Source: Chloroflexota bacterium (GTDB taxonomy: Bacteria; Chloroflexota; Dehalococcoidia; SM23-28-2; RBG-16-64-32). Taken from it: a DNA stretch of 24,830 nt. The stretch spans positions 1 to 24,830 of the forward strand of contig JADFNQ010000001.1 of assembly GCA_022563285.1 (NCBI GenBank). Direction: 5' to 3'. The notes under the pieces were generated by a model. The model was not told where the DNA came from. It ran no database searches and saw nothing but the letters and a program-made list of their open reading frames with translations. Shown piece after piece: positions 198 through 4,067 of the stretch; positions within the stretch are counted from its first letter, which is position 1; each line of letters opens with the position of its first letter. Position numbers and translations under genes: made by a program.

Positions 198-1178
198 TTG
201 GCCTGCACCGTGCAACGGGAGGAGCTGGACCGGCTGGAGCCGGAGTGGCGGGCACTGCTGCCCCGCGCCGGTATGAGCAAGGTGTTCGCATCCCCCACCT
301 GGCTGCGCGTCTGGTGGGAGGAGTTCGGGTCCGGGCGTGACCTCATCCTGCTTTCGGTGCGGCGCGAGGGTGAACTCATCGGCGTGGCGCCGCTGATGCG
401 CGACGGTGACCGCCTCTGCTTCGCCGGTGATACCGAGATCTGCGATTACATGGACTTCATCGCCGCCCCGGGCGAGGAGGAGGCCGTCATCTCGGCCGTT
501 CTGCGCAGCCTAGGCGAGGAGCCCTGGCAGGAGCTGGCCTTGTGGGCTGTCCCCGAAGGTTCTCCCACCCTGGCTGCGCTGAAGGCGGTAGCGCCCCAGT
601 TCGGACTTCGTGTGGATATCGAAGTCGAGGATGTCTGTCCCCAGCTTGAGCTGCCCGGCGCCTGGGAGGAGTACCTGGCAAGTCTGGGCAAGAAGGACCG
701 GCATGAGCTGCGCCGCAAGCTGCGCAAGCTCTCCCAGGCCGGCGAGGTTGTCCTGGAGACGGTGGAAGAGCAGGCGGCAGTGGAGGCGGCGCTGGACGAC
801 TTCCTGCGCCTGTACCGTGCCAGCCGCTCCGATAAAGCCGCCTTTATGACCGAGCAGATGGAGCGATTCTTCCGGGCCATCGTCGCCGCCCTCGCTGCCG
901 AGGGGCGGGTTGAGCTCCTCTTTCTCAGTTTGGGCGGCGTCCGCGCCGCTGCTGTCCTCTGCTTCTGCGAGGGCAAAGAATCTCTCCTCTACAACAGCGC
1001 CTACGATCCAACCTACGCCTACCTCTCGGTGGGCCTCCTCTCCAAGGCGCTCGCCCTGCGGAAGGCTATCGAGCAGGGGAAAAGCCGGTTCGACTTCCTG
1101 CGCGGCCCTGAGCCCTACAAGTATGACCTGGGCGCCAAGGACGTCCGCGTGTATCGCTGTACGGTGCGCAGGAATTGA
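198..1178 (+). CDS. GNAT-family acyltransferase, CelD/BcsL-like (tandem GNAT, Fem-like fold)
   Basis: TTG start 1 nt after the folE stop. N-terminal FASPTWLRVWW, ICDYMDF, basic helix YLASLGKKDRHELRRKLRKL and C-terminal FDFLRGPEPYKY are typical of this family. Confidence 0.8.
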   Translation: MACTVQREELDRLEPEWRALLPRAGMSKVFASPTWLRVWWEEFGSGRDLILLSVRREGELIGVAPLMRDGDRLCFAGDTEICDYMDFIAAPGEEEAVISAVLRSLGEEPWQELALWAVPEGSPTLAALKAVAPQFGLRVDIEVEDVCPQLELPGAWEEYLASLGKKDRHELRRKLRKLSQAGEVVLETVEEQAAVEAALDDFLRLYRASRSDKAAFMTEQMERFFRAIVAALAAEGRVELLFLSLGGVRAAAVLCFCEGKESLLYNSAYDPTYAYLSVGLLSKALALRKAIEQGKSRFDFLRGPEPYKYDLGAKDVRVYRCTVRRN

Positions 1179-1205
1179 CCGTTAGGTTATCATTGATGGA
1201 CGCGC

Positions 1206-2435
1206 ATGTGTAACATAGCGGTTGTCTCCGTCCATACCTCGCCCCTGGCTCGCCCCGGCACCCGCGATAGCGGTGGCATGAACGTCTACATCCGGGAGTT
1301 GAGCCGCCAGCTCTGCCGCCGCGCCCACACCATGGATATCTTCACCCGCCGCACTGATCCGGACTCGCCGCAGGTGGTGGAGATAGATGGGCGGACGCGG
1401 GTCATCCAGATAGAGACGGGGCCGCTCGACGCGGACAAGGCGTCGTTGCACCTGCATCTCCCCGAGTTCCGCCGCGGCGTTATCCGCTTCCAGGAGGAGC
1501 AGGGCCGCTCCTACGACCTCGTCCACAGCCATTACTGGCTCTCCGGCTGGGTAGGCCAGGCGCTCAAGGCCCGCTGGGGCGTCCCCCATGTCATCATGTT
1601 CCACACGCTGGGCGAGGTGAAGAACCGCGCCCGCGTCAGCGAGCGTGAGCCTGATTACCGCATCGCCGGGGAGCGGCTGGTCGCTCAGGGTGCGGACCGC
1701 ATCATCTGCGCCAGCGAAGGGGAACGGCGGGCCCTGATCGAGTACTACGGCGTGTCACCGGCGCTGACGGTGCAGGTACCCTGCGGTGTAGACATGGATC
1801 ACTTCCGCCCCATGTCCAGCGGCCGCGTTCGCCGCAGCCTGGGCCTGCCCCAGAGCGAGATGCTGGTCCTCTACGTGGGGCGCATCGAGCCCCTGAAAGG
1901 CATCGATATCCTCCTGCGGGCGGCCGCTGAGACGGAGGGCCGGTTCTGCCTCCTCATCGTCGGCGGCGATAGCAAGGACGCGGCGCGCAAGGCCGAACTG
2001 CGCAAGCTCGCGGACGAACTCGGCATCAGCGACCGGGTCATCCTCCGCGACGCCGTCCCCCACGAGCAACTGCCGCTCTACTACAACGCCGCCGACGTCT
2101 GTGTCGTCCCCTCCTACTACGAGAGCTTCGGCCTGGTGGCCCTGGAGGCGATGGCCTGCGGGATCCCCGTGGTCGCCTCCCGCGTGGGTGGTCTCCTGGA
2201 GACCGTGAAGCACGGCCAGACCGGCTATCTGGTGCCCTGGCGCTGCCCGGAGCCGTTCGCGGAGCGACTGGAGCTCCTCCTGGACAACGAAACCCTCCGC
2301 CGTAGCCTGGGCCGCATGGCCCGCGCCGCCGTAGAGCGCTTCCGCTGGGCGGAGGTCGCCACCCGCGTGGAAGAGGTCTACCACGAGCTCGTCTCCCAGT
2401 ACCGGGGTGTCAGTATCGGCGCGCACGTGGCCTAG
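1206..2435 (+). CDS. mshA: GT4 glycosyltransferase, MshA-like (D-inositol-3-phosphate glycosyltransferase)
   Basis: SVHTSPLARPGTRDSGGMNVY, HSHYWLSG, FHTLGEVK and PSYYESFGLVALEAMACG match the actinobacterial MshA motifs. Substrate is inferred, not shown. Confidence 0.8.
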   Translation: MCNIAVVSVHTSPLARPGTRDSGGMNVYIRELSRQLCRRAHTMDIFTRRTDPDSPQVVEIDGRTRVIQIETGPLDADKASLHLHLPEFRRGVIRFQEEQGRSYDLVHSHYWLSGWVGQALKARWGVPHVIMFHTLGEVKNRARVSEREPDYRIAGERLVAQGADRIICASEGERRALIEYYGVSPALTVQVPCGVDMDHFRPMSSGRVRRSLGLPQSEMLVLYVGRIEPLKGIDILLRAAAETEGRFCLLIVGGDSKDAARKAELRKLADELGISDRVILRDAVPHEQLPLYYNAADVCVVPSYYESFGLVALEAMACGIPVVASRVGGLLETVKHGQTGYLVPWRCPEPFAERLELLLDNETLRRSLGRMARAAVERFRWAEVATRVEEVYHELVSQYRGVSIGAHVA

Positions 2436-2447
2436 AATCCGCCTCGC

Positions 2448-3140
2448 GTGAGCGAACCGAAACGAGCCCTGGTCATAGTCGCTCACCCGGACGATGCGGA
2501 GTTCCTCTGCGCCGGCACGGTGGCCCGCTGGGTCTCCGAGGGATGGCAGGTAGCGTACGTCCTGGTCACATCCGGCGATAAGGGCAGCCACGATGAGGGT
2601 ATGACCAGCGAGCGGCTGGCCGCCGTGCGGGAGAAGGAGCAGAGCGCCGCCGCCAAGGTGCTGGGCGTCAGCGAGTGCGTCTTCCTGGGCTACCCGGACG
2701 GCTTTGTAGAGGACACGGCGGAGCTCCGGGGGAAGCTGGTGCGGGAGATACGGCGCTTCAAGCCGGACCTGGTGATCACCTGGGACCCCTACCGGCTGGG
2801 CCATAACCACCGCGATCACCGCCTCACCGGGCAGGCCGCCCTGGATGCGGTCTATCCACTCTCTCGCTCCCACCTGTACTATCCGGAGCATCTGGAACAG
2901 GGGCTGGGGCCGCACCGGGTGAAGGAGGTCCTTCTTGCCGGAAGCGATCGGGCCAATTACCATGTTGACGCAAGCGATTTTTTTCACAAGAAGATGAAGG
3001 CTTTGCGTTGCCATAAGAGTCAGCTCGGCCGCTATCCGCTAGGCGAGCTGCGAAAACGGGTGCGAGAGCGCATGGCAGAGGTGGGCAAGGAGGCCGGTTT
3101 CAAGCTGGCCGAGGCGTTCCACCGCATCGAGTGGAGATAG
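2448..3140 (+). CDS. PIG-L/LmbE-family metal-dependent N-acetyl-sugar deacetylase (MshB/BshB/Mca superfamily)
   Basis: GTG start. AHPDDAEF metal motif, TSGDKG, PDLVITWDP and the NHRDH (HxDH) motif. Confidence 0.88.
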   Translation: MSEPKRALVIVAHPDDAEFLCAGTVARWVSEGWQVAYVLVTSGDKGSHDEGMTSERLAAVREKEQSAAAKVLGVSECVFLGYPDGFVEDTAELRGKLVREIRRFKPDLVITWDPYRLGHNHRDHRLTGQAALDAVYPLSRSHLYYPEHLEQGLGPHRVKEVLLAGSDRANYHVDASDFFHKKMKALRCHKSQLGRYPLGELRKRVRERMAEVGKEAGFKLAEAFHRIEWR

Positions 3141-3147
3141 GACTAAG

Positions 3148-4032
3148 GTGGAGGGCCTTTCACTAACCACGTTCTGGCTGGCCCTGGGCCTCACCGCCGC
3201 GGCGGTGGTCTTCTACTGGGGCTACTCCTTCGGTGTGCGAGTAGCCGTGCGCCGCCTGGCAACCGACGGCGACGGCGGCATGACCGTCGCCACCTTCGAG
3301 AGGTTGCCGGAACCCCTGGGCAGGCTGGGCAGCCTGGCTACCTGGGCGGCGGCGGCCTTCCTGGCCGTATCGCTGTTCGCCCGCTGGCGGGCTGTGGGTC
3401 ACGCCCCCTGGTCCAACATGTGGGAGTTTACCGTCGCCTTCGCCGGCGGCATCCTGCTATTCTACATCGTGTTCGAGCGCCGGTACGGCCAGAGGGCGCT
3501 GGGCGCATTCATCCTGCCGGTGGTGCTGGCACTTCTGGCCGTAGCCGCCGCCTTCTTCCCGTCGGACGTGCAGCCCCTGGTACCCGCCCTGCAGAACCAG
3601 GACCTCCTGGCAATCCACGTAGCGATGATGGTCCTGGCCTACAGCGCCCTCAGCGTCTCCTTTGGCACCGGCGTAATGTATCTCCTCCAGGGGGAGAAGA
3701 ACCGCTTCCCGCGTCTGCCCAAGGCAACGCTCCTGGACGAGATCGGCTACCGCTCGGTAATGGTGGGCTTACCCTTGCTGGCCGTGGGGATCGCCTTGGG
3801 GGCGTACTGGGGCAACTCTGCCTGGGGTCGCTACTGGGGCTGGGACCCCAAGGAGACGTCGGCCCTGGTGACCTGGCTCATCTACGCCGGCTACATGCAC
3901 ACCCGAGGACTCCGCGGCTGGACGGGCACGCGAGCCGCCGTAATCCTGGTGCTGGGGTTCCTCGCCGTGATCTTCACCTTCTTCGTGGTGAACCTGTGGG
4001 TGTCCGGCCTCCACTCCTACGCCGGGGTGTGA
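3148..4032 (+). CDS. ccsA: System II cytochrome c biogenesis protein (heme-handling WWD-domain membrane protein, CcsA/ResC)
   Basis: Multiple hydrophobic helices, PWSNMWEF, VPALQ, AIH, the WWD motif AWGRYWGWDPKET and conserved His residues (YMH, GLHSYA). Confidence 0.93.
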   Translation: MEGLSLTTFWLALGLTAAAVVFYWGYSFGVRVAVRRLATDGDGGMTVATFERLPEPLGRLGSLATWAAAAFLAVSLFARWRAVGHAPWSNMWEFTVAFAGGILLFYIVFERRYGQRALGAFILPVVLALLAVAAAFFPSDVQPLVPALQNQDLLAIHVAMMVLAYSALSVSFGTGVMYLLQGEKNRFPRLPKATLLDEIGYRSVMVGLPLLAVGIALGAYWGNSAWGRYWGWDPKETSALVTWLIYAGYMHTRGLRGWTGTRAAVILVLGFLAVIFTFFVVNLWVSGLHSYAGV

Positions 4033-4038
4033 CCAAGC

Positions 4039-4067
4039 TTGACACCACAACAGCCGGTTGCTATCCT
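4039..4067 (+). promoter_or_regulatory. sigma70-type promoter for the rpsL superoperon
   Basis: Perfect -35 TTGACA (4039-4044), 17-nt spacer, extended -10 TG-c-TATCCT (TG 4059-4060, hexamer 4062-4067). A second TATCCT follows at 4068-4073. Predicted TSS about 4074. Confidence 0.8.

Follow-up and report, generated by a model that had tools for sequence, protein, structure and literature searches.

The locus described here raises the question of why a bacterium outside the Actinobacteria should carry, directly downstream of folE, a set of genes that recalls the synthesis of mycothiol, and of what the encoded enzymes would make. The genes lie on contig JADFNQ010000001.1 (C38 in our numbering) of assembly GCA_022563285.1, of which positions 1 to 24,830 were analysed (hereafter the window, 24,830 nucleotides). 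The host is an uncultured member of the Dehalococcoidia, represented by a metagenome-assembled genome (MAG) of 1.45 Mb in 241 contigs that is 77% complete. The named homologues of the window's proteins come from Dehalococcoidia or Chloroflexota MAGs, which agrees with the non-actinobacterial, Chloroflexota-like host given in a preliminary description of this DNA. That description had also recognized three tightly linked genes after folE, and these are found as open reading frames (ORFs) at 198-1178, 1206-2435 and 2448-3140, all on the forward strand. They encode, in this order, a 326-residue transferase with a double-GNAT Fem fold (the Fem-fold protein, product of the Fem gene), which starts from a TTG codon after an AGGAGG site, a 409-residue MshA-like retaining glycosyltransferase of family GT4, and a 230-residue zinc de-N-acetylase of the PIG-L/LmbE family. 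The order listed earlier (MshA, PIG-L, acyltransferase) is thus to be corrected; the PIG-L deacetylase had been identified rightly, whereas the label 'near-canonical MshA' proved too strong for a GT4 that stays below the MshA cut-off, and the acyltransferase, taken for a GNAT of the MshD type, belongs to PF13480 and has the Fem fold.

We propose that the operon next to folE is the dehalococcoidial version of the logic of mycothiol and bacillithiol synthesis, in which a glucosaminyl-inositol (GlcN-Ins) would be aminoacylated from an aminoacyl-tRNA, probably one charged with cysteine; for this reading as a whole we see the case for and against as evenly balanced. In the proposed pathway, the product of ino1, 1D-myo-inositol 3-phosphate, would feed the GT4, which, judging from its residues, would transfer N-acetylglucosamine (GlcNAc) from UDP-GlcNAc onto this phosphorylated acceptor and yield GlcNAc-Ins-P. 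Some phosphatase would remove the phosphate, and the PIG-L enzyme, as its family suggests, would take off the N-acetyl group and expose the amine of GlcN-Ins. The Fem-fold protein would then acylate this amine from an aminoacyl-tRNA and so do the job of MshC, the ATP-dependent paralog of cysteinyl-tRNA synthetase that acts in Actinobacteria, a role suggested by its fold, its synteny and its phyletic pattern. The donor amino acid would most likely be cysteine, in which case the product would be Cys-GlcN-Ins, a mycothiol-like thiol, and in some lineages an MshD-like GNAT would N-acetylate it. Since no MshD-like acetyltransferase was found in the lineage studied here, the product may in this organism stay unacetylated or be capped otherwise. 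The parts of this scheme are of unequal strength: a GlcN-glycoside core is highly probable and inositol as the aglycone fairly probable, while tRNA-dependent aminoacylation by the Fem-fold protein has at best slightly better than even chances, and the choice of cysteine is tentative.

The scheme borrows from two known systems and matches neither. With mycothiol synthesis in the Actinomycetota (MshA, MshA2, MshB, MshC, MshD) it shares a retaining GT4 with the acceptor and donor residues of C. glutamicum MshA (CgMshA), a PIG-L deacetylase, a supply of inositol phosphate by ino1 and, depending on the relative, a tandem GNAT resembling MshD or a truncated paralog of cysteinyl-tRNA synthetase (CysRS) resembling MshC. 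It differs in that the host belongs to another phylum, in that the GT4, PIG-L, MshD-like and CysRS-like proteins all score below their equivalog cut-offs, and in that a Fem-fold transferase apparently takes the ligase step here and in most of the other genomes, with no MshD-like gene here. Mycothiol genes in Actinobacteria are as a rule not clustered, unlike the cassette. Bacillithiol synthesis (BshA, BshB, BshC) shows the same succession of a GT4, a PIG-L enzyme and the addition of cysteine to a glucosamine amine; moreover, the PIG-L protein scores best on BshB1 and BshB2, and MDMPI_N/DinB-type domains occur on both sides. Unlike in that pathway, the BshA score is low, BshC was not found, and the acceptor residues of the GT4 are MshA-like and not of the malate type.

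The glycosyltransferase and its acceptor

Among the NCBIfam models, the GT4 (1206-2435) matches MshA (TIGR03449) best, with 393.3 bits against a curated cut-off of 462.5; the next family follows at 157 bits, and the BshA model gives only 112. When compared with solved structures, it is practically as close to CgMshA (3C4Q, 275 bits) as to Tll1590 (6KIH, 271 bits), a sucrose-phosphate synthase (SPS) from Thermosynechococcus with UDP-glucose plus fructose 6-phosphate as substrates (PMC7264703). In an alignment with CgMshA the residues M24, N25, K78, H109, Y110, H133, T134, K139, R154, R231 and K236 and the ESFG...E motif are retained. The residues that we take to contact inositol phosphate and UDP-GlcNAc in CgMshA, namely N25, K78, Y110, H133, T134, R154, R231, K236, E316 and E324, are all identical in the GT4 (HMMER alignment to 3C4Q).

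The published contacts of SPS (A48, Q51, R105, H158, R178, E331 and P332) were mapped onto the alignment, and wherever SPS and MshA differ at the mapped positions the GT4 matches MshA. The N-terminal loop reads DSGGMNVY in the GT4 and CgMshA versus ESAGGQNIY in Tll1590, position 78 is a lysine versus an arginine, the acceptor-side motifs are HSHYW and HTL versus HTNYW and HSL, and the donor-side motif is ESFG versus EPFG. Tll1590 also uses basic residues to hold a phosphorylated acceptor, but its A48, Q51, R105, HTNYW, YHSLG and P332 are found neither in this GT4 nor in the other cassette-linked GT4s. Among 74 GT4s that adjoin a Fem gene, the MshA-type positions vary little or not at all. As far as sequence can tell, this residue signature is necessary for MshA function but not sufficient, and the GT4 is an MshA-like enzyme with a predicted MshA-like pocket that falls outside the curated MshA equivalog. 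It likely uses a phosphorylated acceptor and a GlcNAc donor, and the most likely acceptor candidate is 1D-myo-inositol 3-phosphate.

A different acceptor is the best surviving alternative, although we consider it unlikely. The GT4 would in that case act on some other phosphorylated sugar, polyol or acid, or on a glycan- or lipid-linked molecule, and the product would be another kind of aminoacylated glucosaminide, for instance a compatible solute or a decoration of the cell surface. This would be consistent with the equal similarity to Tll1590, the score below the MshA cut-off and a position outside the clade of the true MshA anchor (see below), with the presence of ino1, which is uninformative here, with the FemAB-like genes known from exopolysaccharide (PEP-CTERM) loci and the weak match of the Fem-fold protein to TIGR03019, a PEP-CTERM model, and with a DUF502 membrane protein inside the loci of many relatives. 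It agrees poorly with the cassette GT4s following MshA at each acceptor-side position that differs from SPS, with the way in which the truncated CysRS paralog and MDMPI_N domains track the GT4, and with an MshD-like gene in 34 of 80 related loci. In addition, no membrane segments were seen by eye in the Fem-fold, GT4 and PIG-L proteins.

The deacetylase

The PIG-L protein (2448-3140) contains a near-complete PF02585 domain (126 bits, positions 1-128 of 129), and the metal-binding motif AHPDD is seen at residues 12-16 of the translation. All its NCBIfam scores lie below the respective cut-offs (BshB1, 102.9 against 182.5 bits; BshB2, 90.1 against 195; Mca, 73 against 277; MshB, 46 against 224), and among solved structures it comes closest to archaeal diacetylchitobiose deacetylases (128 bits), followed by BshB (45 bits) and MshB (41 bits). 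The best-matching enzymes are all de-N-acetylases of GlcNAc glycosides, and we propose that this enzyme would free the 2-amino group of such a glycoside.

The Fem-fold transferase and its donor

The protein encoded at 198-1178 matches PF13480 (Acetyltransf_6) with 121 bits and, weakly, PF04339 (FemAB_like); by sequence it has no significant match in the PDB and none on the MshD model TIGR03448, on which nothing significant was found genome-wide. An AlphaFold (AF2) model based on 28 orthologues (pLDDT 92) was compared with known structures (Foldseek + VIA). The 23 best neighbours, with Z scores of 18-21.6 and root-mean-square deviations (rmsd) of 3.3-3.8 Å over 263-291 residues, are FemX, FemA, Sba18/Sbb17, MprF (its aminoacyl-phosphatidylglycerol synthase domains) and a single protein that is uncharacterised. 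FemX (6SNR) reaches a Z of 21.6 over 291 residues, Sba18 21.3 and MprF 18-19, and identity to structural neighbours such as Sba18/Sbb17 is only 15-17%.

Sba18 and Sbb17 are aminoacyl-tRNA-dependent peptide synthases with structures containing the amino-sugar compound streptothrisamine, and Orf11 moves glycine from Gly-tRNA onto the amino sugar of streptothrisamine (PMC12945691, a 2026 review). These streptothricin-type enzymes, like VlmA, PacB and DhpH, share with the protein studied here the double-GNAT Fem fold (Z about 21 to Sba18/Sbb17) and an amino-sugar amine as the proposed acceptor (PMC12945691), and differ from it by their low identity and by their setting, an antibiotic cluster in their case and a core, class-wide housekeeping locus in the case of the cassette. 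According to the same review, a catalytic lysine near the C-terminus (K305 in FemX, K329 in DhpH) is common to Fem-type enzymes, as is a basic helix on domain 2 that binds tRNA (PMC12945691). In the Fem-fold protein, the candidate for this lysine is K308, which lies in the C-terminal sequence LRGxExYKYxLG and is the same in all 81 of 81 orthologues. Helix 165-177 carries eight basic residues, and K166-R176 are invariant among the fetched loci, a conservation that is partly by construction since part of the helix motif served to fetch them. FemX, FemA, FemB and MprF provide the best fold matches, and the protein appears to share with them a lysine-containing motif at the C-terminus and a helix of basic residues to which the acceptor arm of a tRNA might bind; in contrast to them, the Fem-fold protein is without a membrane domain, is almost always paired with a GT4 and occurs also in hosts with a single Mur-ligase-domain gene. 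As modelled, the Fem fold suggests an aminoacyl-tRNA as the donor, and the protein more probably replaces the missing MshC than acts as an analogue of MshD.

We think it improbable, but worth weighing, that the Fem-fold protein is instead an N-acyltransferase that depends on an acyl-coenzyme A (acyl-CoA), in which case, with the GT4 and PIG-L reactions unchanged, it would put a non-acetyl acyl group back on the glucosamine amine and the cassette would yield an N-acyl-GlcN glycoside and no thiol, for instance an osmolyte, a signalling compound or an envelope precursor. PF13480 is annotated generically as GNAT acetyltransferase and CelD/BcsL, the NCBIfam model of BspF, a crotonyl transferase, is matched weakly (31 bits), and the fold also clearly resembles acyl-CoA-dependent tandem GNATs such as MshD (2C27, Z 16.3) and glucosamine N-acetyltransferase. 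However, the acyl-CoA users, VipF among them, rank lower (Z 14-17) with rmsd values of 4.8-7.3, while the best structural matches use aminoacyl-tRNA. Likewise, the sequence has no obvious Q/RxxGxG/A motif, which we take to be the signature for binding the CoA pyrophosphate, and does have the YKYxLG motif with its invariant lysine, which we take to be Fem-like. An acyl-CoA donor would also leave unexplained the complementarity with the truncated CysRS paralog, which is described in the next section.

For the Fem gene a part in peptidoglycan branching was considered and rejected as its conserved function, because three cassette-positive genomes (G001-G003) have one Mur-ligase-domain gene each, versus 5-6 in the genome studied here and in G127. 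As a separate observation, the lineage studied here likely makes peptidoglycan, and the other cassette-bearing Dehalococcoidia with one such gene are probably without a wall.

Conservation of the cassette and the missing ligase

One genome per species was scanned with the Fem-fold protein, which gave at least 580 relatives, and the best 80 loci were examined. All are from Chloroflexota, mostly labelled Dehalococcoidia and including one SAR202 MAG, and Fem identity falls to 42% across them. A GT4 gene lies directly 3' of the Fem gene in all but two of these loci (L035 and L045, the latter cut by the end of its contig), and folE lies directly 5' of it in most. The PIG-L gene follows the GT4 gene directly or 1-5 kb downstream and is unlinked in about 11 loci; in six of six genomes without a linked copy an orthologue was found elsewhere in the genome. 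In an evenly spread sample of 121 genomes of the class, 88 of them of high quality, the Fem gene is present in 81 (57 of the 88) and an MshA-like GT4 in 92. Family f49 includes closed genomes of 1.4-1.9 Mb with homologues of both genes.

As the preliminary description had noted, neither mshC nor ino1 lies in the window. No MshC over the cut-off (TIGR03447, 485 bits) was found in the host genome, in five large relatives or in the 121 class genomes, BshC was not found in the host genome, and gshB was absent from five of five genomes searched. The host genome showed only two CysRS-type genes: one encodes a fusion of CysRS with a GT2 glycosyltransferase and reaches 226-227 bits on the MshC model, and the other is a regular CysRS in partial form. 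The GT4 occurs without the Fem gene in families f4, f6, f7 and f40 and in part of f32. In f4 and f40 the order is folE-GT4-PIG-L-(ccsB)-rpsL, with folE abutting the GT4 gene and the Fem gene missing from that position. In each of the first ten GT4-positive, Fem-negative genomes tested there is a further gene of the CysRS family, about 390-415 codons long. The encoded paralog keeps the HxGH and KMSKS motifs and ends 115-126 residues past KMSKS, compared with 183-224 in regular CysRS, and therefore is without the anticodon-binding end, which is the architecture of MshC. On the MshC model these ten reach 318-394 bits and those of the class sample 303-394, all below the cut-off; the full-length paralogs scanned score about equally on the cysS and MshC models, whereas regular CysRS reaches 500-531 bits on cysS and 295-334 on MshC. 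The truncation was checked directly in 15 paralogs and in the others by match range and ORF length, so that a few may be full-length.

A second, non-fusion CysRS-like gene is present in 17 of 20 GT4-positive, Fem-negative genomes (two of the three exceptions are less than 75% complete), in nine of 81 Fem-positive genomes and in none of 20 GT4-negative genomes. The paralog thus goes with the GT4 and, for the most part, is found where the Fem gene is not, which is the pattern expected if either enzyme can add cysteine to the deacetylated glucosaminide. The paralogs are 40-52% identical to each other, and a hidden Markov model built from six of them did not fully separate them from regular CysRS; from their sequences, they may have arisen more than once. 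No MshD-like gene was seen among the neighbours of the truncated paralogs, which include GT2, HpcH aldolase, PrpD and enoyl-CoA hydratase genes, among others.

We regard a canonical four-enzyme mycothiol pathway, in which the acyltransferase would take the MshD step and mshC would lie elsewhere in the genome or in unassembled sequence, as very improbable. Such a pathway could hide in a genome that is 77% complete, and G110, of the same family, has a truncated CysRS paralog as well as a Fem gene; against this stand the PF13480 Fem fold of the protein, which is not that of MshD, a best TIGR03448 score of no more than 21 bits genome-wide, the finding that a second CysRS-like ligase is lacking in 72 of 81 Fem-positive genomes, the lack of any MshC over the cut-off in the 121 genomes, and the coexistence of a separate MshD-like gene with the Fem gene in 34 loci. 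That the three genes do not cooperate and are mere neighbours through the very conserved gene order near the ribosomal-protein operons (folE to ccsB, rpsL, rpsG and fusA), as the unlinked PIG-L genes in about 11 loci might suggest, is hardly credible in view of the Fem gene adjoining the GT4 gene essentially everywhere and being absent at that position where lineages have the CysRS paralog, of the retention of unlinked PIG-L genes in the genome, and of enzyme chemistries that fit one pathway.

The paralogs have further features of their own. In two Fem-positive genomes, G005 (L090:1438-2610) and G110 (L134:1377-2561), the paralog lies next to an enoyl-CoA hydratase gene; these genomes indicate that the Fem and paralog routes can coexist, and the genome studied here, at 77% completeness, might hide such a paralog. 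The CysRS-GT2 fusion of the host (contig C48, L001:481-2754, minus strand) is a 757-residue protein with a full-length CysRS part (434 bits on cysS) and a C-terminal GT2 domain, and the usual HxGH motif was not found in it by a simple pattern. It was considered as a dedicated supplier of Cys-tRNA to the cassette and rejected, as orthologous fusions are limited to 12 of 121 genomes and their distribution is not that of the Fem gene. The GT2 protein encoded next to the paralog in f6 (299 residues, L116:505-1404, minus strand, beside the paralog at L116:1408-2589; also in L108) shares 29% identity with the GT2 domain of the fusion, so that CysRS-like and GT2 proteins recur together, fused or adjacent. 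The window contains no tRNA gene, and the host genome has a single tRNA-Cys with no extra copy (aragorn). It also encodes a tRNA-Sec with anticodon TCA (aragorn), and selenocysteine use by the organism is therefore probable.

MshD-like proteins and thiol-dependent domains

A convergent gene for a tandem GNAT of about 300 residues lies between the GT4 and PIG-L genes in 34 of the 80 loci, all of other lineages, next to the GT4 gene and in the same locus as the Fem gene. Its best NCBIfam match is full-length MshD (TIGR03448, 87-118 bits, cut-off 163). A gene for a DUF502 membrane protein follows the GT4 gene directly in 24 of 80 loci (for example L036:12172-12894 and L058:12354-13079, both plus strand). 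It usually accompanies the MshD-like GNAT, belongs to distant relatives and not to the window, and might encode a transporter or a membrane partner.

MDMPI_N/DinB-type domains were found in seven of eight GT4-positive and in none of six GT4-negative genomes, a small sample that is confounded with genome size. Among 14 control genomes this Pfam family was present only in B. subtilis, D. radiodurans and C. glutamicum, which we take to be the bacillithiol or mycothiol producers among the controls. A 'mycothiol maleylpyruvate isomerase' has been annotated earlier in SAR202 (PMC6123686).

Strength of the proposed pathway

A number of observations weigh against the pathway as drawn. For the acceptor, ino1 is uninformative since it is universal in the class (115 of 121 genomes and all 88 of high quality, and also the host genome), and the MshA-type residue signature is also found in groups from other phyla and therefore is no proof of an inositol-phosphate acceptor. 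None of the 92 class genomes with a TIGR03449 match reaches the cut-off, the maximum being 428 bits. Trees were calculated from 150 GT4 representatives taken from a search of the whole library and anchored by their NCBIfam scores. They include one verified MshA anchor (P0342, 625 bits on TIGR03449, as against 305-330 for SPS-like representatives and 312-403 for the other groups), and names for the clusters are scarce, being limited to a Deltaproteobacteria MAG and Thermomicrobiales MAGs. FastTree places the P0342 group beside the cassette GT4s with weak support (80). In the quick IQ-TREE tree, however, the cassette GT4s form a clade of their own (SH-aLRT 84), and P0342 is placed together with proteins of the SPS-like and Thermomicrobiales types (92); the SPS-like representatives are a clade apart, supported at 99%. 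For the donor, PF13480 includes acyl-CoA users, and likeness of fold does not settle the matter. The identity of the amino acid rests solely on the complementarity between the Fem gene and the CysRS paralog, which in turn rests on about five independent lineages per side. Nine Fem-positive genomes, including G110 of the host's own family, have both genes, and in f6 a GT2 gene follows the paralog after 3 nucleotides, so that the paralog may belong to a different system. The absences from the host genome are weak evidence because it is 77% complete. Finally, the MshD-like gene was not found in the host genome (best TIGR03448 match 20.8 bits), in four of five close relatives or in the Fem-negative lineages, and free Cys-GlcN-Ins would be prone to autoxidation.

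Compared with the preliminary description, the picture is mixed. The genes are strongly conserved together in relatives, a point whose failure it had named as a refutation, both in the 80 loci and in the sample of 121 genomes. The phylogeny of the GT4, another point that it had set beforehand as able to overturn it, leaves the cassette GT4s outside the anchor clade in the better tree, so that by its own rule this part fails there, although their active-site residues are MshA-like. The genome search that it called for gave ino1 but neither an MshC over the cut-off nor BshC. The proposed GlcN-inositol conjugate survives in so far as a pathway of GlcNAc transfer and de-N-acetylation is the best reading of the locus; the idea that the acyltransferase is an analogue of MshD does not.

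Neighbouring genes and transcription

The window opens with the 3' end of folE (GTP cyclohydrolase I; 2-196, PF01227 positions 118-178 of 179, E 8e-20), and the cassette is followed by ccsB for cytochrome c biogenesis (3148-4032, TIGR03144, 229.8 bits, above the cut-off) and, from 4219, by rpsL, rpsG, fusA and ribosomal-protein operons, all on the forward strand. The five genes from folE through the Fem, GT4 and PIG-L genes to ccsB are co-directional with gaps of 1, 27, 12 and 7 nucleotides, and a signal scan of the forward strand found no promoter-like or terminator-like site inside this block; the sole promoter-like site lies at 4039-4067, past ccsB and ahead of rpsL. Because of these short gaps and the lack of internal signals, we regard the block as one transcription unit, in which folE and ccsB are probably co-transcribed with the cassette. 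Both are conserved neighbours of the cassette throughout the class, folE upstream and ccsB downstream, and ccsB comes after the PIG-L gene in many related loci. We do not claim ccsB as a member of the pathway; it lies only 7 nucleotides downstream of the PIG-L gene. A functional link of folE or ccsB to the cassette is speculative, one possibility being thiol redox chemistry in cytochrome c maturation. In the host genome ino1 is on another contig (C24, L004:7264-8328), where it stands at the contig end after nusA-ylxR-infB-rbfA-truB, so that any downstream partners, such as a gene for an inositol-phosphate transferase or a phosphatase, would lie beyond the contig.

Implications

In the literature searched, no paper was found that describes the cassette, a low-molecular-weight (LMW) thiol or a GlcN-inositol metabolite of Dehalococcoidia. 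In its furthest-reaching form, which we put forward only tentatively, our reading would mean that a new LMW thiol, Cys-GlcN-inositol or its N-acetyl form, is made by way of Cys-tRNA(Cys) in most Dehalococcoidia, among them SAR202-type marine and groundwater lineages. The Fem-fold protein would on the same tentative reading be a non-orthologous replacement of MshC, and sister lineages without it would use the MshC-like truncated CysRS. The same reading would give annotators a reason to drop the name 'CelD/BcsL cellulose acetyltransferase' for this PF13480 gene.

If true, the biosynthesis of a redox-buffer thiol would for the first time be seen to involve a tRNA-dependent step, the Chloroflexota would have their first assigned LMW thiol, and mycothiol-type chemistry would reach a second phylum. 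It would also provide a clean natural case of gene displacement, of a Fem-fold transferase against a truncated CysRS, at one conserved locus. Dehalococcoidia abound in aquifers, soils, sediments and the deep ocean, and the organohalide respirers employed for bioremediation belong to them; in this class a core redox or protective metabolite could then be built with a charged tRNA instead of an ATP-dependent ligase.

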